Shown here in pieces: positions 12,995 to 25,165 of a stretch of 64,000 bases of DNA. The translations under genes and the position numbers were made by a program. A model generated the notes under the pieces. It was not told where the DNA came from, did no database searches, and saw only the letters and a list, made by a program, of their open reading frames with translations. This stretch comes from Sulfolobales archaeon HS-7. Its GTDB lineage: Archaea > Thermoproteota > Thermoprotei_A > Sulfolobales > Sulfolobaceae. The DNA is taken from assembly GCA_019704295.1 (NCBI GenBank), contig AP024596.1, forward strand, positions 384,001 to 448,000. Reading direction: 5' to 3'. The stretch's first letter is position 1. Each line of letters begins with the position of its first letter.

Positions 12995-13531
12995 ATGAAG
13001 AAGTGGGTAAGAACTTTACTATTCTCCGCCATATTTTCTGTCGCAGCCTTTGCGGTCGATGCAGGGTTTACCGTGGGGTTATCAAGTTACGCTATAAGTC
13101 CGATATTAGATCCCTTTCTCGAATTCACTATTCCTCTTATGATAATAGTTATCGGCTTTAATGTAATAAATTCCCGACCAGCCGCATTAGAAATTGCTCT
13201 AATCTCAGCCCTAGTCTATGCTGCCTCATCCCTCCTTTTCCTAGTTCCAGGTATTATAATATCCGGTGTAATAATAGAGGGTTTTTGTTTCCTTATAGGT
13301 TATAGGGGATTAAAAGCCTCATTAGCCCAAGGGGGAACGTTCGCAGTGATTAACGGTATTCTTAGCTTCGTATTTGGCGCGCTCTTCCTCGGCGCACACT
13401 CTATAATAAGGGTAACGCCGACACTAATCCTCATATTAACTCCAGCCTTTTTAGTAGAAGGAATAGTAATCGGCAGTATTTCTTGGAAAATATTTAACTA
13501 TATGATGAAATCGGGGATAATTAAATCATGA
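12995..13531 (+). CDS. membrane protein, probable ECF-type substrate-specific component
   Basis: 178 aa, about 5-6 TM; first gene of an operon with T-like and ATPase genes. Confidence 0.65.
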   Translation: MKKWVRTLLFSAIFSVAAFAVDAGFTVGLSSYAISPILDPFLEFTIPLMIIVIGFNVINSRPAALEIALISALVYAASSLLFLVPGIIISGVIIEGFCFLIGYRGLKASLAQGGTFAVINGILSFVFGALFLGAHSIIRVTPTLILILTPAFLVEGIVIGSISWKIFNYMMKSGIIKS

Positions 13532-14094
13532 GAGTGAATTTCGTCACAGGTATTTTTTTCGTTTCCGCCTTGACGGCAGCGGGAATATTGACAACTGCCG
13601 TGATCCCATTTCTGGCAACTATTCCACTTATAAGGAGAAAAATTATTATTATAGTTGAAATCGCCATAATATCAATAAGTCTGCTCATACTGTATTATAC
13701 CTCGAGATTCTATTTTTATCCGTATTCCTTTAGAGGACTTCTATACGTTAATCTCTATTTCATTGCATCAGAATACATTGATAAGGCCTCGATAGTTGAC
13801 GTGTTGGGGGAAGCGGGAGTACCTATCGCAGTTGCGTTATCGTATTATCCCTACTTGACGTCAATAGTCAGGGATGTTGTTTTTTACTCTAGAGCAAGAA
13901 AAAAGAATGTGTTCAGAGTTACACTACCAATTATAGTACAACTTGTTAAATCCGTTCAGGATATATGGATTACTTATAATCTTAAGCTATTTGGTAATTT
14001 TAGGAAGGATAAAATTAAAATCACTTCCTCTGAAATCGTTTTATTGCTATACGGGTTTGCTACATTATGCTTGTCATTTCTCCTAAAGGTTTAA
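13528..14094 (+). CDS. membrane protein, probable ECF transmembrane (T) component
   Basis: Hydrophobic; SRARK resembles the ARG coupling motif; ATGA overlap with upstream gene. Confidence 0.6.
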   Translation: MRVNFVTGIFFVSALTAAGILTTAVIPFLATIPLIRRKIIIIVEIAIISISLLILYYTSRFYFYPYSFRGLLYVNLYFIASEYIDKASIVDVLGEAGVPIAVALSYYPYLTSIVRDVVFYSRARKKNVFRVTLPIIVQLVKSVQDIWITYNLKLFGNFRKDKIKITSSEIVLLLYGFATLCLSFLLKV

Positions 14095-15179
14095 CAGGAA
14101 AGATAGAACTAGGGGAAAATGAGAGAGTCGCCCTTGTAGGGAGGTCAGGATCTGGTAAAACCCTTTCAATAAAGACCGCTCTTTGCCTGAATTCTGGGCT
14201 TTCGATGATCGATGACAAGTCGTTTTGTGAGACGCAAGACTTCTCAATTGTAAACGCAGTTTTTCAGGAACCTAACACCCAGATACTGTCAACGAGCCTT
14301 GAGGAGGAGTTAAAGCTTATCTCTAGATATCATCCCGTTGATTTGGAATTAGCTAAGCAGTTAATGGGTAAATACTTTACTAGGGATTTCTTCAAGCTGT
14401 CCGATGGATATAAGAGAAGATACGTAATCTCATCCGTTCTTTCATTTGAGCCAAAATACGTCTTGTTAGACGAACCCTTTGCTAATGTAGATCGGGAGGG
14501 AACATCGCTTATCGCTGGAATTATTCCCAGAGGTTCCCTGATCGCAGAACACAGGATTCCAGTAATCAGGGAGATCGTAGATAGAGCGTATGTAATTGAA
14601 GATGGGAGGATAGAGGAAATAAAGAAGGACAAACTCTTCGATGAGGATTTTTTGAGGAAAAATGGCTTGAGAGGATTCAAAGTGGACAAAATTGACACCG
14701 ATAAAGGTAAGGAGTTACTTAACGTGAACGTTAGGGGGATAAACTTACGGGTTAGAGAGGGAGAAATTGTATGCCTGGTTGGCAGGAACGGCTCTGGAAA
14801 AACTACTTTGATAAAATCCCTGGCAGGAAAGATATATGCAATTTTTCAAAATCCCGATCTTCAATTCTTTTACGAGACAGTCGAGAGGGAGGTTGGAGAC
14901 GATGAAACGATGAGGAAACTTGGTCTTTACAAGCTAAGGGAAAGGAGTCCATACGCTTTAAGTTACGGGGAGAAGATGAGAGTTCTCATAGCCTCTGCAC
15001 TTGCATCTAAATATAAGGTCGTAGCACTCGATGAGCCTACGGCAGGACTAGATGGTGTTAACTTAATATCCTTTGTGGAGTTGTTAGGTAGTGTGTTAAA
15101 CAGTAAACGGGGAGTAATTATCGCGACCCATGATGAAGAAATTATAAACATATGTGATAAAATAATTAACTTATCTTAA
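14067..15179 (+). CDS. ABC/ECF transporter ATP-binding protein with two NBDs
   Basis: Two Walker A (GRSGSGKT, GRNGSGKT), FQEP/FQNP Q-loops, LSDG/LSYG signatures, LDEP Walker B. Confidence 0.9.
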   Translation: MLVISPKGLTGKIELGENERVALVGRSGSGKTLSIKTALCLNSGLSMIDDKSFCETQDFSIVNAVFQEPNTQILSTSLEEELKLISRYHPVDLELAKQLMGKYFTRDFFKLSDGYKRRYVISSVLSFEPKYVLLDEPFANVDREGTSLIAGIIPRGSLIAEHRIPVIREIVDRAYVIEDGRIEEIKKDKLFDEDFLRKNGLRGFKVDKIDTDKGKELLNVNVRGINLRVREGEIVCLVGRNGSGKTTLIKSLAGKIYAIFQNPDLQFFYETVEREVGDDETMRKLGLYKLRERSPYALSYGEKMRVLIASALASKYKVVALDEPTAGLDGVNLISFVELLGSVLNSKRGVIIATHDEEIINICDKIINLS

Positions 15180-15628: not shown

Positions 15629-16366
15629 TCATACCTCACCCCGACTTATCTCATCGGGATCGGGTTTCCTACTGATCAGCCTCCCCCCATCTATAATTAT
15701 CTCCGTTCCTGTGATGAAGGTATTCATGTCTGAGGAGAGAAATACAAGCAAATTCGCGACTTCCTCAGGTCTTCCCATTCTGCCTAAAAGGGTGGCGGAA
15801 CGCAGATCCAGGTTTTCAGGTACATCATCCCCTTTTGTGTATATAGGTCCAGGTAATACCGTAATGACCTGAATGCCGTATTGACCTAAGTCGACGGCCA
15901 TGCTTCTTGCCATTGAGATCAGTCCACCTTTCGTTACGGCGTAAGGAAGGGAACTCCTCAGAGGGGAAAAAGCCTGTATTGCTGATACGTTAATTATCTT
16001 TCCTCTGTTCCCATTCCTAATCATTGCCTCAGCTGCCGCTTTCGACAAAAACATAGGAGCCGTTAGATTTAACTCTATCATAGAGTTCCATTCCTCCTCA
16101 GAAACTTCCAATACTGAATACCTGGAGTTACGCGACGCGTTATTGATAAGGGCATCTATATTCATCTCCCTTAATTGTAAATACACTCTTCTGATTTCCT
16201 CCCTTTTAGACAAGTCTGCTACAATGTAGTCTACGCTTATCTGAGGTACGGAACGGCCTATAACTGTTACGTTAGCTCCCTCTTCTAGGGCTCTTTTAGC
16301 GAAAGCAAGACCTATTCCGTGAGTTCCGCCGGTTATTACAATATGCTTATTTCTCAGGAGGTTCAT
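15629..16366 (-). CDS. SDR family oxidoreductase
   Basis: [12 protein letters not shown], catalytic Ser and YAVTK (YxxxK), [13 protein letters not shown]. Confidence 0.93.
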
Positions 16367-17507
16367 CTTTGATATCCCCGAAGTACCTGTAATCCTTGCT
16401 GAAGTACTCCAGATGAAGCTTTCTATATGGATACTTATTTAGTGCGTCTTCATTAACGTCAAATCCGATACCCGGTTTCTTAGGTGGATATATGTAGCCG
16501 TTCCTCAGTTCAAAGTACTCCGTGAGCAGATCTTTTCTCACGCTGGGTGCATCTAACCAAAACTCCATTATTAACCCGTTAGGCATAGTAAGCATAGCAT
16601 TAAGCGTGTGAGCGGTAGCTATAGGACCGTTTGGATTATGTGGGGCAACAGATAGATATTTCGCAGAAGCCAGAGAAGCTATTTTGGAAAGAGTTCCCAA
16701 GCCTCCAACATGACAAACGTCAGGTTGAATTACATCTGCTGCTCCTGAGTTTATGAGTTCAACGAACCTATTTAACGTGACCAATCTCTCACCGGTAGCT
16801 ATAGTAATTATGGATTTTGACCTTACTACCTTCAACGAGTCTATGTCTTCCTCAGGTACAGGCTCCTCTAGCCAAAAAACGTTATATTTCCTCAACATTT
16901 CTGCAACTCGAATTGATGAAGCTATGTTAAATCTGCCATGAGCATCTACTAATATGTCGAAGTTGTCCCCTACCGCATCCCTAACTGCGGAGACCCTATC
17001 TTCAGCCCTTTTAAGTTCCTCGTCCGTAATCGTTGGCCCACTTCCTCCAAACGGATCGAATTTAGCGGCTTTAAATCCAAGTTCCTTAACTTTTTTAAAT
17101 GCCTTAACAAACTCGTCTACTTCCCTATCGCCTGATATGAAACCGTTAGCGTAGACCTTTATCCTATTACTGACCTCTCCACCTAGCATCTGGTATAAGG
17201 GGACTTGAAGTTCCTTAGCTTTTGCGTCCCATAGAGCCTGCTCCACTGCGCTTACGGCCGTCATAAGTATCGGTCCTCCTCTCCAGAAGAAGTTCTTCGT
17301 TAAGAAGTTATATGCCCAATTAGGGTTGACTTCTTTGCTGAGAAGGTGGGGCTTGAAGTCGAGAATGGCAGCCTCTACTGTGGATTCGAAATCACCCATA
17401 GTTCCCTCCCCGTACCCCTTAATACCGTTGTCCGTTGTGACTTCCACTACTACGAAGTTCCTCCAGACTGCATAGATCTTGTATACTTTTATGTCAGCGA
17501 TCTTCAT
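16347..17507 (-). CDS. mandelate racemase/enolase-superfamily sugar-acid dehydratase (DgoD/gluconate dehydratase-like)
   Basis: [37 protein letters not shown]; start moved to ATG 17507, preceded by GGTGAGG SD. Confidence 0.9.
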
Positions 17508-17511
17508 GTCC

Positions 17512-18591
17512 TCACCTTGACGTACTAAAAGATTCATAAATTGGTTGTAAAACTACGGGAGGCAATTCGTCCTTAATACGAAAAGTCCCCCCAGTTCTCT
17601 CTGCCAAATGCTCTAAAAGAAAACTATCCTCTTCTAGGATTTCCCCTATTACGTTGAACCTACCATCAGCATTTACGTCTTTCTTGAAAATCCAGACTTG
17701 AATGTAATGAGGATTGTCATTGACTACACATACCGAACCAGAATACCTTCTCACGACGTTTCTGGGAGTTATGTTGTTTTCCCCCGCTGTAGTTAATCCT
17801 ACGGAGTTTTCCTTTATTCTAACGTCCCGAAATTCCCTTCCGAAAACCTTCTTCTCTTCCTCTGTTACGTTTGGATACACCCTTACTCGTAATCTTGTAT
17901 ACATTAAAGATGACGATACGTCCTCTAGTTCTGTTTTTGTGGGTTCTGGTTCTCCTATCCAGATCCTGTCTATTACTTTGGTGTTAATTAGGACATTCGC
18001 CGATGTTCCTATATCTAGTTCCCTTAAAGTTTCAATAGTGCTCCTTGCTCCTCCTTTTCTAACTATAAAAGCTGCTACCGAGATTCCCCTGCTGTGAAAT
18101 TCCTTCGATTTAGCTACGGCGTCCTCAAGCGATAGCCCTGTTTCCATCCAAGGGTAAAAATCATGAGATGCCATGACCAGTTCTGGATCCCTTACCTTCC
18201 TAAGAAACTCGTCAATGTGATCTACGGGAAATACACTAGCATTAAGTTCCGTTTTCAGACCTAGTTCGTTATTAGCTATTTCTACCATCTCGTCTAGGGA
18301 GAAACCCCAGTCTAGCCTCAAACCTCCCACTCCTATATCCTTAAAGACCCTTAGATTTCTTGGAGACGCGCCTAGCTGGTTGAAAACGTCAGGGCTAACG
18401 TCTACAACGTAATAAAAGCCGAGGTTATTCAACAGTTCTGCGATCTCTTTTGCCTTACCAACAGTTTCCCTTGCTATCCCTGACCAAACCTCAGTGTACC
18501 CTAGTTCTCTTGCCAATGGTAGGAGTTCCTTTTGTTTTTTTAGATAGTCGTCATTCCATAGGGTTAGTAACATACCTAACTTTTTCGTCAT
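17512..18591 (-). CDS. DUF871/MupG-family (GH170-like) TIM-barrel glycoside hydrolase
   Basis: VDVSPDVF, GLRLDWGFS, ELNAS, HDFYPWMETGLS, TIETLR and C-terminal RRYSGSV..N..FNVIGEI match DUF871 motifs; alternative GTG start at 18612. Confidence 0.8.
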   Translation of the reverse strand: MTKKLGMLLTLWNDDYLKKQKELLPLARELGYTEVWSGIARETVGKAKEIAELLNNLGFYYVVDVSPDVFNQLGASPRNLRVFKDIGVGGLRLDWGFSLDEMVEIANNELGLKTELNASVFPVDHIDEFLRKVRDPELVMASHDFYPWMETGLSLEDAVAKSKEFHSRGISVAAFIVRKGGARSTIETLRELDIGTSANVLINTKVIDRIWIGEPEPTKTELEDVSSSLMYTRLRVRVYPNVTEEEKKVFGREFRDVRIKENSVGLTTAGENNITPRNVVRRYSGSVCVVNDNPHYIQVWIFKKDVNADGRFNVIGEILEEDSFLLEHLAERTGGTFRIKDELPPVVLQPIYESFSTSR

Positions 18592-18696
18592 TGAGATAAT
18601 AGTTAAGACCACGTTTAAAAGTGTAGTACGAATTCCAAAGGGAATACAATTGTGTATGCGTTAGATATTTAACTTTCATTTATAATATAATGCACT
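18592..18696. promoter_or_regulatory. compact divergent promoter region (DUF871 operon / suyAB)
   Basis: TTTTAAAC on minus strand (18613-18620) and TATTTAA/TTTATAA on plus strand about 20-30 nt upstream of the respective ATGs. Confidence 0.55.
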
Positions 18697-18987
18697 ATGG
18701 GAAAAGGTCTCATTCACTCTAAAGACGACGACGTCTGCGTTGTTGTTGCAGACGTAAAACAGGGGGAAGAGGTTGTATGTTCTTCTATAGAAGATCCGAG
18801 GTATACTGTGGTTATAAAGGCCATTAACGATATACCTCTTGGTCATAAAATAGCTCTAAGGAAAATCGGAGAGGGTAACGACGTTAAGAAATACGGAAGA
18901 AGTATAGGTGTAGCAACAAAGGAGATTTCATTAGGCGAACACGTGCATGTCCATAACATTAAGTCGAAGAGGTGGGGAAAACGATAG
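18697..18987 (+). CDS. suyA: SAF-domain small subunit of UxaA family; sulfolactate sulfo-lyase alpha-like
   Basis: HSKDDDVCVVV, DIPLGHKIAL, KYGRSIG, GEHVHVHNIKSKRW; stand-alone SAF subunit as in SuyA. Confidence 0.75.
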   Translation: MGKGLIHSKDDDVCVVVADVKQGEEVVCSSIEDPRYTVVIKAINDIPLGHKIALRKIGEGNDVKKYGRSIGVATKEISLGEHVHVHNIKSKRWGKR

Positions 18988-20141
18988 AAATAAAGGGTTA
19001 TGTAAGGGAAGACGGTTCCGTCGGAATAAGGAATCACGTTGCTATAATCCCGCTGGATGATCTTTCAAACACTGCCGTAATGGGAGTTGCTAAACTAGTA
19101 AGGGGCACCGTACCCCTTCCTCATCATTACGGCAGACTTCAATTCGGTAAAGACCTAGATCTAATGTTCCACATTCTCGGGGGCAGTGGTGCAAATGCCA
19201 ACGTAGCAGGAGCAATAGTTATAGGAATTGAGGAGAACTGGGCAAATAAGGTAGCGGACTTAATCGCGAAAACGGGTAAACCCGTTGAGGTCTATCCCAT
19301 TGAGGGGTACGGCGACTTAAGGACAATTGAGAGAGCGTCAAGAAAGGCTAAGGAAATGGTTCAGGAGGCATCAGAAAAACAACGTACTACTGTGGATCTC
19401 TCCTCAATTGTAATGAGCATAAAGTGCGGGGAGTCAGATACAACCTCGGGTTTAGCTTCAAATCCTGCCACCGGAATAGCCGTAGATAAAGTGATAGATA
19501 ACGGAGGGACAGTCATGTTTGGAGAAACGTCGGAATTAACTGGAGCGGAGGACATAGTTGCCGAGAAGATAAGGGATGAGGAGTTGAGGAAAAAATTCAT
19601 GAAAATATATGACGAATACATCACTGAGGTAGAAAGCAAGGGGGCAGACCTCCTGGGTTCGCAGCCTACGCAGGGCAACATCAAGGGAGGACTAAGCACT
19701 ATAGAGGAAAAAGCTCTAGGTAACATTCAGAAACTTGGTCGTCGAGAGGTTAATTGCGTTCTTGATTACCTTGACGAATTACCTAGTAATAGACACGGTA
19801 CACTATGCTTTGTTAATACGTCTTCTGCAGCCGCTGAGGCGGTAACTCTATTCGCATCCAAGGGATCTGTAATTCACTTATTTACAACAGGCCAAGGTAA
19901 CATAGTAGGCCATCCATTAATACCAGTTGTCAAAATAACGGCGAATCCAAAAACGGCAAAACTAATGTCGGAGCACATTGACGTTGATCTCTCTGAGCTA
20001 CTGGAGATGAGGATATCCCTGGAAGAAGCAGGGGAGAGAGTGTTCCAGTATTCTTTAAAAACAATCAACGGTAGACTAACCGCTTCTGAAGTATTACAGC
20101 ACGATGAGTTCGTTCCAATAAAACTATACATTAGTGCATGA
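18972..20141 (+). CDS. suyB: UxaA-family hydro-lyase large subunit; sulfolactate sulfo-lyase beta-like
   Basis: GIRNHVAIIPLDDLSN, PHHYGRLQFGKDL, KCGESDTTSG, QPTQGNIKGGLSTIEEKALG, TSSAAAE, TGQGN; the first two are SuyB-type signatures as I recall them. Confidence 0.78.
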   Translation: MGKTIEIKGYVREDGSVGIRNHVAIIPLDDLSNTAVMGVAKLVRGTVPLPHHYGRLQFGKDLDLMFHILGGSGANANVAGAIVIGIEENWANKVADLIAKTGKPVEVYPIEGYGDLRTIERASRKAKEMVQEASEKQRTTVDLSSIVMSIKCGESDTTSGLASNPATGIAVDKVIDNGGTVMFGETSELTGAEDIVAEKIRDEELRKKFMKIYDEYITEVESKGADLLGSQPTQGNIKGGLSTIEEKALGNIQKLGRREVNCVLDYLDELPSNRHGTLCFVNTSSAAAEAVTLFASKGSVIHLFTTGQGNIVGHPLIPVVKITANPKTAKLMSEHIDVDLSELLEMRISLEEAGERVFQYSLKTINGRLTASEVLQHDEFVPIKLYISA

Positions 20142-21491
20142 TCACTTTAACATTAGGTTCTCATACTGCTTTACGTATTGTAAGCTTCTTTTTACGTCTG
20201 CGAAGTATTTATACGCTTCCTGAACATCTGAGGCAGTTACTGTATCCCTTCCATTCCTTTCAGCTATTATGTTACTAGGTTCAAGTATCTCAACGCTATA
20301 TCTAAGACTTTCCTCTGTTCCCACTTTGGTTAGCTCAGCTACTGCATCATCCTGAAGCTTTATACCTAGTTCCGATGCCCTTATTTTCACTATTTCCCTT
20401 ATTTCATCAGCTGTGTAAGGCCGTGTAGGTATTATCAGCATTCGATCGAGGACGTCGAGAGGAATTCCATGTGGAGATTCAATATCCGTTCCCCTTATTT
20501 TTGCCATACCTCTATTTGTAGCTAATATAATTATAGGGGAGAGTTCGGCCTCTAAGGCCTTCGTTAAGAACGAAAAGGTCTCTATGTCAAGCATATGTGC
20601 GTCGTCTATGAAAAGTATTCCTGGTATCAATTCCCCGTTACCCTTATTTACCGCTTCCTTAACTAGTCTATCGACCTCTTTCCTAACATCTTGATTTATC
20701 TCTCTCTCGGTAAAAAGAGAGAATATTGAGGTAAAGGAGATACTCTGAGCGGCAACGTTAAGATCAAGGTCGTGCAATGTAAAGGTGTTAACGATCTCCT
20801 TTTCCTTCTTTACAGGTCCGACGGGCATTTCTACAACCCTAGGTCCTCCCACCTCATATTTGGACTCAGCACTCCTCCCTATTCTAAATACGTTTCCGGT
20901 GTCTGCATCTATCCATATAACGTCGCCCTTCCTTATCCCTAATCTGACTATCTGTTCTGCAACGCCCTCTCCAGCGGTTAATCGAGATTGATCATCCTTC
21001 GTTTTTAGCACTATTTCCGCCTCACGCGGCATTTGAGCATAGGGATTCATTCTACTTCTTGCCACCTTTACCTTAACTTCATCTACAACCCCTTCGTAAA
21101 CCATCCTCTTTTGCTTAAGCCTAACACCAATTGATTTTCTAATAGCCTGTGTTAATATCTCCGTCTTCTTAAGCTCCACAGAGTAGAGTTCGGTGGCATT
21201 TATCGTGTTGAATGGTGTGTCCTCTCCAAGTTCCTTGGCAATGGCTACGGCAATCGCTGTTTTACCTGTCCCAGGTGGACCAACAAACAGAACACCCTTG
21301 CCAGCCATTTTACCCTTTCGCACTAATTCAACTACAAGTCCAGCTGCTTCCCTTGCCTCCACCTGTCCTACAAGACCGTCTGCCTTGAACTCGGCCTTTC
21401 CATTTAGTTTTAAACCCAATCCCGTTATGTGACTGTGTATGCTTGCCTTTTCCACCTCGGATGGCCTTTTAACTTCCTTGATCTCGGCCAT
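20142..21491 (-). CDS. RuvB-like AAA+ ATPase TIP49/RUVBL
   Basis: [53 protein letters not shown]; start moved to MAEIKE. Confidence 0.95.
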
Positions 21492-21767
21492 CTTGGCTCC
21501 AATTAAATTTAATGACTGAGCTTTTGAGATTATCTTAACTTCAGCATTCCCTGAATCTCTTAACAAAGGAGTTTTTACCGAGACGTCTAAAGGCGAAACG
21601 TAGCAATGCTTTTTCAGGCTTAAGAGACTATGACGTTTCAAGGAACTATAAATTAATTTATATTATATTTAAAATATTAAAAAGAAAATTGTATATCTAG
21701 TAAATAATTACAGGAAAATCTGAAAGATTTTTTTAACAACGAGAGTTAACCTTACCTTAAAGATACT

Positions 21768-23135: not shown

Positions 23136-23882
23136 GTGAAAGCACTCTTCGTATCACATGGTTCGCCGATGATACTTGTAGAGAAGAATTCATGGAAGGA
23201 ATTACTTTCTGAAATAGGTAAAGAATTCGCTGATTTTGACAGAGTTGTTATAGTTAGTCCCCACTTCGCTACATGGGATAAACATTACGTAGAGGTTCAG
23301 GAAAGATTGGAGTGTATTCAAGACTATTACGGTTTTCCAGAGGAGCTTTACAAGTTCTGCTATTCTGCCCCTAATGATGTAGAGTTCGCTGAGGCCATAG
23401 TTAGAGGATTAGAACGTGAAGGAATCCCAGTAAAAGCTGACACTTCGTGGGGACTTGATCATGGCGCGTGGATTCCCCTCATGTATATGTTTCCGTTTCC
23501 TAAGAAGGTCGTAACGGTGTCAATTACCCCTAACGGTCCTGAAGAACATGTAAGAATAGGTGAGGTAATTGGATCTCTAGCTGACGATAAAACGCTCGTA
23601 ATAGGTACAGGTTCTCCAACCCATAGGTTGGATTTAATGTATATGAAAGTGGGAAAATGGAACTCAAAATTCGACGCCATGCTAATGGAATTAATAAACC
23701 AAGGTGACGTTATTGGACTACTCAATCTCCCGAGTAAAAAGGAATGGATTGAAGCTCAGCCAGAAGGAGATTTAGCGCCATTTTACGTGGCTTTAGGTTC
23801 GTCAAGTGGTAAGAAGGGAAGAGTTCTCAGTTACACCTCTCCAGAATACGGAGTAAGCATGTTGGCTGTAGAGTTCGATTAA
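23136..23882 (+). CDS. LigB/DODA-type extradiol dioxygenase family protein
   Basis: LFVSHGSPM, SPH, DYYGFP..Y, WGLDHGAWIPL, GSPTH. Confidence 0.88.
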   Translation: MKALFVSHGSPMILVEKNSWKELLSEIGKEFADFDRVVIVSPHFATWDKHYVEVQERLECIQDYYGFPEELYKFCYSAPNDVEFAEAIVRGLEREGIPVKADTSWGLDHGAWIPLMYMFPFPKKVVTVSITPNGPEEHVRIGEVIGSLADDKTLVIGTGSPTHRLDLMYMKVGKWNSKFDAMLMELINQGDVIGLLNLPSKKEWIEAQPEGDLAPFYVALGSSSGKKGRVLSYTSPEYGVSMLAVEFD

Positions 23883-24100: not shown

Positions 24101-25165
24101 ATGATAATTAAAGCAGAGAAGATAGTCCTGAATACGACGATCATCTCAGGGTCTATAGAATTTGACGACAATGGAATAATTACAGCGGTTAACAAGGGTT
24201 CTACGAACAACGGGCTTATTCTGGTACCAGGCTTCGTAGATACCCACACTCACGGAATAGCGGGAAGGGACTTCTCCATTTCAGCAGAGGATGTAATCGA
24301 GGATTACGTCAAACATGGAGTAACGACTTACATCCCAACTGCAGTGTCTTTGAGCAGAGAAGGACTTAGAAAATTCTGTAGTCAAATGGCCTCTTCGAAA
24401 TCGAATGTATTCAACTTAGAGGGTCCTTACATAAGTGCGAGTAAGAGAGGTGCACATGCACTCTCTAATTTAAGAAAGCCTGATATAAGAGAGGTTGTTG
24501 AATGCATGAAGCTTTCCAAAAACAAACTTGCTGTAATAACCGTAGCACCAGAAATTGCAATGGAAGTAATTCCAGAGCTGATAAAAATGGGAATTATTGT
24601 GTCGATTGGACATACCGATGCAGATTTCCCCGTTTCCGAACTTGCTTACTTAAGTGGGGCAACTAGAACTACTCATATATTTAACGCAATGAGGACGTTC
24701 CATCACAGGGACCCCGGAGTAATTATCGCTTCTCTCCTTTACTCTAACTTCATTGAGGTGATTCCAGATTTTTTCCATGTTGATCAGCAAATTATCAAAT
24801 ACTTAATTCAGAACCACTGGAGAAGGTTGGTCGCCATAACAGACTCAATATCCGCTACAGACCTAGGTGATGGAGAGTATTCTCTAGGAGACGAAAAGGT
24901 ATTCGTAAAGGGAGGAAAAGCTAAACTCAAGGATGGAACCATTGCGGGTAGCACACTAACGATGGATAAGGCTTTTAGAAACGTTCTCGAGTTAACAGAT
25001 CTTCTTACGACATCTTCGATCGTAAGCTATAATCCGGCTAAATCTATTAATCTCAACGATAGGGGGGAACTGGGTATAGGGAAGAGAGCCGACTTAGTTG
25101 TCCTAGATTCGCATTATACTTTGAAGGAGGTTTACGCAGAAGGCAAGCTACTATTTCAGCATTAA
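24101..25165 (+). CDS. nagA: N-acetylglucosamine-6-phosphate deacetylase
   Basis: PGFVDTHTHG, LEGPY, GAH, VAPE, GHTDA, THIFNAM, ITD, IAGSTLTM, NPA. Confidence 0.92.
   Translation: MIIKAEKIVLNTTIISGSIEFDDNGIITAVNKGSTNNGLILVPGFVDTHTHGIAGRDFSISAEDVIEDYVKHGVTTYIPTAVSLSREGLRKFCSQMASSKSNVFNLEGPYISASKRGAHALSNLRKPDIREVVECMKLSKNKLAVITVAPEIAMEVIPELIKMGIIVSIGHTDADFPVSELAYLSGATRTTHIFNAMRTFHHRDPGVIIASLLYSNFIEVIPDFFHVDQQIIKYLIQNHWRRLVAITDSISATDLGDGEYSLGDEKVFVKGGKAKLKDGTIAGSTLTMDKAFRNVLELTDLLTTSSIVSYNPAKSINLNDRGELGIGKRADLVVLDSHYTLKEVYAEGKLLFQH

Follow-up and report, generated by a model that had tools for sequence, protein, structure and literature searches.

Both GH170 enzymes for which functional data exist, S. 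aureus MupG, a 6-phospho-N-acetylmuramidase, and L. paracasei ChbE, which acts on phosphorylated diacetylchitobiose, take N-acetylated 6-phospho-sugars as substrates (PMC6262408, PMC12791066). The founding paper of the family, in which the catalytic residues were still unknown, noted in 2018 that archaea also have MupG-like proteins and expected these to have a different function (PMC6262408). The N-glycan of Sulfolobales is built of Glc, Man, GlcNAc2 and sulfoquinovose (SQ) (PMC2948927, PMC7064770), with SQ being present in the N-glycans of three members of the order (PMC7064770) and beta-linked (PMC10755693); the authors of the work on the GH188 sulfoquinovosidases (SQases) suggested N-glycans as substrates (PMC10755693). 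As for the later steps of breakdown, SuyAB has been identified in Cupriavidus pinatubonensis (PMC12890257), and the sulfofucose route of Paracoccus combines an SDR, an enolase-type dehydratase and SuyAB, the same enzyme types as those considered here (PMC12421959). A 2026 review knows of no characterized archaeal SQ pathway (PMC12890257), and our own literature search, with most subscription journals outside its reach, turned up no publication that connects GH170 or SuyAB with the use of SQ by archaea and, by locus tag, nothing on these genes.

Here we analyze a GH170-type hydrolase gene in a 64,000-nucleotide stretch (hereafter the window) of the genome of Sulfolobales archaeon HS-7 (contig AP024596.1). 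An earlier note had proposed a beta-SQase of a new kind; it took no account of the neighboring genes, neither the operon with the dehydratase and the SDR nor the SuyAB pair on the opposite strand. The context of the locus suggests that these archaea may eat a sulfur-bearing sugar from the surface coats of their neighbors.

The hydrolase and its active site

The hydrolase is encoded on the reverse strand (17512..18591) by a stop-free ORF of 359 aa, running from ATG at 18591 to TGA at 17512. All the motifs behind the original DUF871 call, namely RLDWGF (92-97), ELNAS (115-119), HDFYP..TGLS (143-154) and TIE.LR (185-190), are present in this intact frame, and profile searches bear the call out: MupG_N (PF19200) matches with E = 5e-47 and 160.9 bits (cut-off 24), and MupG_C (PF05913) with E = 2.8e-11 and 44 bits (cut-off 24.4). 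The DUF871 structures 1X7F and 2P0O are the only solved structures matching it by sequence. Its AlphaFold model (138 sequences; pLDDT 96) displays a (beta/alpha)8 barrel followed by a C-terminal beta domain, and aligns to 1X7F with a TM score of 0.78 and Z of 32.7 and to 2P0O with Z of 28.8, the next fold reaching Z of 17.4; in Foldseek, GH27 alpha-galactosidase-type barrels come next after the GH170 family. The protein is thus confirmed as a genuine, intact GH170/DUF871 (MupG-family) member, and by sequence belongs to neither the GH31 nor the GH188 SQases. As a search of the sequence found no hydrophobic segment, it is predicted to be cytoplasmic.

At the strand ends, bacterial and archaeal GH170 proteins share D64, R92, D94, N117 and H143, and within the post-strand-7 loop T185, E187 and R190 are likewise kept between them; the hydrolase has every family-wide residue tested (D64, R92, D94, N117, H143, E187 and R190). 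Around this core, the archaeal loop is shorter, with R183 as a new arginine in it: R-[TSN]-T-x-E-x-x-R occurs in 38 of 42 archaeal sequences against 1 of 115 others (a set that itself holds one archaeal protein), while T-x-E-x-[HQ]-R occurs in none of the 42 against 102 of the 115. Gone from the archaeal proteins, too, are the histidine that precedes R190 in bacteria and two C-domain arginine motifs. The Asn of H-N-x-Y-P has become Asp144 in the subclade of the window protein and in subclade C (29/42 versus 0/115), with subclade B retaining the bacterial form. In the hydrolase itself, none of the bacterial motifs H-N-x-Y-P, G-L-P-T-x-E-x-H-R, I-R-S..R and R-Y-x-G-E was found. Phosphate-binding barrels hold their anion at strands 7-8, and in structural alignment such enzymes are the closest barrels after the GH170 family; hence, the rebuilt loop may be an anion site. 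Since our search found no ligand-bound GH170 structure, this pocket is placed by its position in the sequence and by the likeness to phosphate barrels. Changes along a long branch need not alter specificity.

The phylogeny, which the earlier note had put forward as a check, places the archaeal GH170 proteins together at the end of a long branch, as a single clade separate from the bacterial proteins and divided into three subclades, with up to three paralogs per genome lying in distinct subclades. This tree is a quick IQ-TREE reconstruction with SH-aLRT support only and a midpoint root, leaving out most bacterial matches, and we claim from it neither a donor nor a direction of transfer. The window protein is 52-64% identical to Caldivirga-type and metagenomic sequences (P0002-P0010) as against 45-51% to other Sulfolobaceae copies, a pattern hinting at exchange between orders. 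We also observed related barrel-only paralogs of about 235 aa (L013:9840-10547 and L071:10011-10721), one directly after a GlmS-like gene, and, in a metagenome-assembled genome, a GH170 gene within a PTS/GH4 cluster (L132:1015-10885), one cluster member being labeled 'Candidatus'.

The locus, its relatives and their distribution

The hydrolase is likely the first gene of a three-gene operon on the reverse strand. The second (16347..17507), whose likely ATG at 17507 lies 4 nt past the hydrolase stop, codes for an enolase-superfamily sugar-acid dehydratase of the gluconate/galactonate type, a candidate sulfogluconate dehydratase; the main gluconate dehydratase of the genome is a separate gene encoded elsewhere. 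The operon's dehydratase is galactonate-dehydratase-like, with an ortholog passing the NF010624 cut-off, and 37% identical to the putative SfcF (sulfogalactonate dehydratase) of S. mexicanum. The third gene (15629..16366), overlapping the end of the dehydratase gene by 20 nt, codes for an SDR oxidoreductase, a candidate SQ 1-dehydrogenase from an ortholog group (57-66% identity) tied to SuyAB and the hydrolase; compared with solved structures, it displays no special likeness to a solved SQ dehydrogenase. Of the sulfo-ED genes for a dehydrogenase, a lactonase, a dehydratase, an aldolase and an aldehyde dehydrogenase (ALDH), the window holds only two, as candidates, and close orthologs of the cluster lactonase and of ComC are absent from the HS-7 genome. 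A NagA-like GlcNAc-6-phosphate deacetylase gene (24101..25165, forward strand; 218.7 bits against a cut-off of 225.65) lies 5.5 kb from the hydrolase and belongs to the co-inherited package. At the margins, we noted an ECF-type transporter ATPase gene with two membrane genes lacking a Pfam match (12995-15179, forward), ending near the SDR; a TIP49/RuvB-like ATPase gene (20142-21641, reverse) convergent with suyB, which by sequence features marks the edge of the locus; and a LigB/DOPA-dioxygenase-like gene (23136-23882, forward) upstream of nagA.

Across an AT-rich divergent intergenic region of 105 bp (18592..18696), with TATA-like boxes, judged by eye alone, about 25 nt upstream of both starts, the hydrolase faces two forward-strand genes: one for a SuyA-like SAF subunit of 96 aa (18697..18987; 39% to C. 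pinatubonensis SuyA) and one for a SuyB-clade GD_AH subunit of 389 aa (18972..20141; 54% to C. pinatubonensis SuyB). We rejected the split into SAF and GD_AH subunits as proof of SuyAB, since other UxaA proteins are split as well, and therefore turned to clade membership. In a tree of the large subunits, the archaeal SuyB-like proteins join the SuyB of sulfonate clusters with a support of 1.0, against four split UxaA outgroup proteins from other gene contexts, and 30 diagnostic columns unite the two against these four. Plasmid matches to the large subunit fall into groups at 51-58% and at up to 41%, the former including the gene pair within the C. pinatubonensis hpsN-hpsO cluster and a Paracoccus pair adjoining a sulfate exporter. 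The four-cysteine SuyB test (PMC6336799) was not reproduced with only four outgroup sequences. An Ldh_2 gene flanks suyAB in 7 related genomes, its best model being the ComC-like L-sulfolactate dehydrogenase (240 bits versus 116 for the next, below the cut-off). The divergent pair is accordingly SuyAB-like, of the sulfolactate sulfo-lyase clade, with that activity being predicted from sequence. After suyB, nearly every archaeal locus (L063-L088, L102, L117-L123) has an uncharacterized mandelate-racemase-family gene, usually with a GntR regulator, whose product might racemize sulfolactate for the (R)-specific lyase; HS-7 has a 36% relative at another place in its genome, where it shares an operon with genes of the GH116 and GH36-like types (G000 123403-128878). 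Genomes of genus g3 (L084-L087) combine suyAB with ComC-like and MFS genes and mostly an ALDH, without GH170, SDR, NagA or GH38, and may import C3 sulfonates that other organisms set free.

The hydrolase lies head-to-head with suyA at three loci (the window, G209 and the metagenome locus L102), the hydrolases belonging to different subclades at about 33-34% identity to the query. It lies less than 20 kb from suyB in 9/16 genomes, from nagA in 8/19 and from GH38 in 6/18, compared to 0/19 for the agl3 control; four of the nine suyB-linked cases are close relatives that share synteny, and as kin are not independent we attach no P value. For the same reason, and because some genes of an island of about 15 will come to lie side by side when shuffled, the head-to-head arrangement is not claimed as statistical proof. 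In terms of co-presence, the hydrolase is accompanied by NagA in 18/18 genomes, by the SDR and the extra dehydratase in 16/18 each, and by SuyB in 15/18, with a phyletic Jaccard index of 0.95 for NagA versus 0.62 for SuyB. The SDR and extra-dehydratase genome sets differ by a single fragmented genome, with suyB in 15/16; two genomes (G137 and G143) have the hydrolase without SDR, extra dehydratase and SuyB. In one Sulfurisphaera ohwakuensis genome (G179; L021, L075), one GH170 gene is a fragment and suyB, 20 kb off, is split by an inserted ORF, a possible case of joint decay; an intact GH170 of another subclade is located elsewhere.

Further neighbors recur across genera: GH116 (three paralog groups), GH38, GH36-like and GH1 glycosidases; oligosaccharide-type ABC transporters; NagA, GlmS-like and PIG-L deacetylase proteins; and the SDR, second dehydratase, lactonase, ALDH and SuyAB. 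This set corresponds to the linkages and sugars found in the N-glycan of Sulfolobales. An approximately 45 kb cluster of Acidianus manzaensis brings together the dehydratase, ALDH, lactonase, SDR, suyAB, a DHDPS-family aldolase, an ABC transporter, two GH170 genes, GH116 and GH38, and thereby every enzyme type of the sulfo-ED route, with specificities assigned by type only. Another Thermoproteota genome (G335) has GH38, NagA, GH116, SDR, lactonase, ALDH and suyAB in one cluster; since no GH170 was found in it, the hydrolase's role may fall there to a different enzyme, perhaps one of GH116. Three proteins of glycan clusters without a Pfam family above cut-off (L122:18256-19317, L102:13090-15471 and L026:3391-4578) are possible unrecognized glycosidases, one of which might take the place of GH170 in G335.

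The hydrolase family is present in 18 of the 47 sampled genomes (~40%) of the family of HS-7, to which Acidianus, Stygiolobus and Sulfurisphaera also belong. In a sample of 401 genomes of the phylum, it occurs outside that family only in one genus, including Caldivirga, whose genomes also have SuyB, SDR, NagA and UDP-SQ synthase, all unlinked. UDP-SQ synthase, in contrast, is found in HS-7 (623 bits; cut-off 575), in all 41 near-complete genomes of the family and in 45/47 overall. As nearly all these organisms can make SQ, yet about 40% carry the hydrolase, its distribution fits glycan scavenging rather than housekeeping. Trimming of the cell's own glycan was rejected on these counts and by the control genome of S. 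acidocaldarius, in which a PF19200 search gave no match; S. acidocaldarius, whose N-glycan had served as the model in the earlier note, thus lacks the gene.

What the hydrolase may cleave

The flanking module is probably a sulfo-sugar route, and we tentatively regard the hydrolase, at somewhat less than even odds, as its cytoplasmic beta-SQase. The analysis establishes the protein's family and fold, the layout of the operon, the clade of the SuyAB pair, the co-inheritance and the altered motifs; in the route that follows, every substrate and reaction is a prediction. An oligosaccharide ABC transporter would import fragments of Sulfolobales-type N-glycans, to be trimmed by GH38, GH116 and GH1 enzymes. 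The GH170 enzyme, adapted to a C6-sulfonate, would then cut the SQ-beta-GlcNAc bond. The SDR would oxidize the freed SQ, the lactone would open, and the enolase-type enzyme would dehydrate the sulfogluconate. A KDG-type aldolase would yield pyruvate and sulfolactaldehyde, the latter being converted to sulfolactate by an aldehyde dehydrogenase and by SuyAB to sulfite and pyruvate, while the GlcNAc would pass via a kinase to NagA. We give a probability of roughly 0.4 to the whole: a first archaeal pathway of SQ breakdown, in which imported N-glycans of neighbors are opened by GH170 as a third, cofactor-free and beta-selective class of SQase, with sulfo-ED and SuyAB leading to sulfite and two pyruvates. 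The hydrolase would not be the first beta-active SQase, because GH188 SQases already cleave beta-SQ (PMC10755693). Neither a GH31 SQase motif nor a GH188-like match was found in the HS-7 genome; Gfo/Idh/MocA genes near the cluster and in the genome matched no GH188-named entry, a weak negative given that PDB names are generic.

Under the beta-SQase reading, links with sulfonate genes and with GlcNAc genes are both expected; the head-to-head SuyAB pair, the sulfo-ED-like genes, the UDP-SQ synthase and the rebuilt loop all favor it, as does the failure of the genome search to find a known SQase type. Against it, the phyletic match is better with NagA than with SuyB, and linkage within 20 kb is about as common to nagA as to suyB, so that the co-occurrence with GlcNAc genes (NagA, GlmS) is at least as good. 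SQ has no N-acetyl group, unlike the substrates of the known GH170 enzymes. Also counting against this reading are the genomes G137 and G143, the G335 cluster, the SDR's want of special likeness to a solved SQ dehydrogenase, and the missing close orthologs of the lactonase and ComC. The ancestral chemistry may instead persist, with a ChbE-like 6-phospho-beta-N-acetylglucosaminidase splitting the chitobiose core of scavenged N-glycans once a cytoplasmic kinase has phosphorylated it and passing GlcNAc-6P to NagA, and with the suyAB adjacency reflecting shared membership of one scavenging island. The ChbE precedent (PMC12791066), the GlmS-like, NagA, ROK kinase or PIG-L deacetylase genes adjoining the hydrolase at several loci, and the H-N-x-Y-P kept in subclade B point the same way. 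However, this would leave the window's operon with SDR and dehydratase unexplained, the motifs conserved in bacterial members are gone, no PTS was found in the HS-7 genome, and a beta-GlcNAcase of GH116 is known in Sulfolobales (Ferrara 2014, as cited in PMC9855744), with GH116 occurring in the same clusters; we consider it the main rival, credible but less likely.

Different GH170 subclades may also have different specificities, and the distinct paralogs within a genome agree with an enzyme acting on some other bond of scavenged glycans: sulfofucose (Thermoplasma glycans), alpha-SQ (algal sulfolipid), a uronate or a neutral sugar. The galactonate-like dehydratase, a UxuA gene within one cluster and the GH27-type barrels next in Foldseek would accord with this, but SQ is the sulfo-sugar that all these organisms and their neighbors can make, the SuyB clade points to sulfonates rather than uronates, and beta bonds are the known GH170 activity; such a bond is improbable. 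Far more doubtful still is a true MupG scavenging bacterial peptidoglycan fragments, the alternative that the earlier note had allowed. Family membership and the nearby nagA are what it has in its favor. The earlier remark that no PTS or murQ adjoins the gene extends to the whole HS-7 genome (one contig, 91% complete), in which PTS EIIC, HPr and MurQ gave no match above cut-off, and the scavenging of cell walls was rejected as a main reading because these partners were not found. Moreover, no muramic-acid gene was recognized at any archaeal locus examined, the archaeal proteins form their own long-branch clade, and Kluj et al. already expected another function (PMC6262408). In its partners as in its motifs, the hydrolase is thus a GH170 member that falls outside MupG proper.

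What becomes of the SQ coating Sulfolobales cells can now be put to direct experiment, since the locus supplies a candidate for every enzyme and cultured Saccharolobus and Sulfurisphaera strains have homologs. Archaeal N-glycans could be trimmed with a beta-selective SQase, which would also settle the question, left from 2018, of the role of MupG-like proteins in archaea (PMC6262408). Should the hydrolase turn out to be a 6-phospho-chitobiase, the SuyAB-SDR-dehydratase module would still be a candidate archaeal sulfonate pathway.

Comparison with known systems

With S. aureus MupG (PMC6262408), the hydrolase shares both Pfam domains, the family fold and the core of R-x-D, N117, H143 and T-x-E-x-x-R, and its proposed substrate is likewise a C6-anionic sugar beta-linked to GlcNAc; unlike MupG, it has no PTS or MurQ, has changed its loop 7 and C-domain arginine motifs and acquired Asp144, and has SuyAB, SDR and dehydratase genes linked to it. 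L. paracasei ChbE (PMC12791066) resembles it in family, in a role in glycan scavenging and in depending on, or co-occurring with, NagA; ChbE, however, works behind a PTS, whereas the hydrolase is found with ABC transporters and sulfonate genes. The NAD+-dependent GH188 SQases (PMC10755693) and the GH31 SQases release SQ, as the hydrolase would, but are of unrelated fold; MupG needs no NAD+, GH31 enzymes are alpha-only, and GH188 enzymes cleave beta-pNP-SQ already. Finally, the sulfofucolytic ED route with SuyAB of Paracoccus wurundjeri (PMC12421959) and the sulfo-ED route of P. putida have in common with the archaeal set an SDR dehydrogenase, a lactonase, an aldolase and SuyAB, the enolase-type dehydratase being common to the archaeal set and Paracoccus. 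The archaeal set differs from both in its DHDPS/KDG-type aldolase, seen in one full cluster, in the GH170 enzyme placed in front, and in the extra enolase-family gene that nearly always follows suyB.
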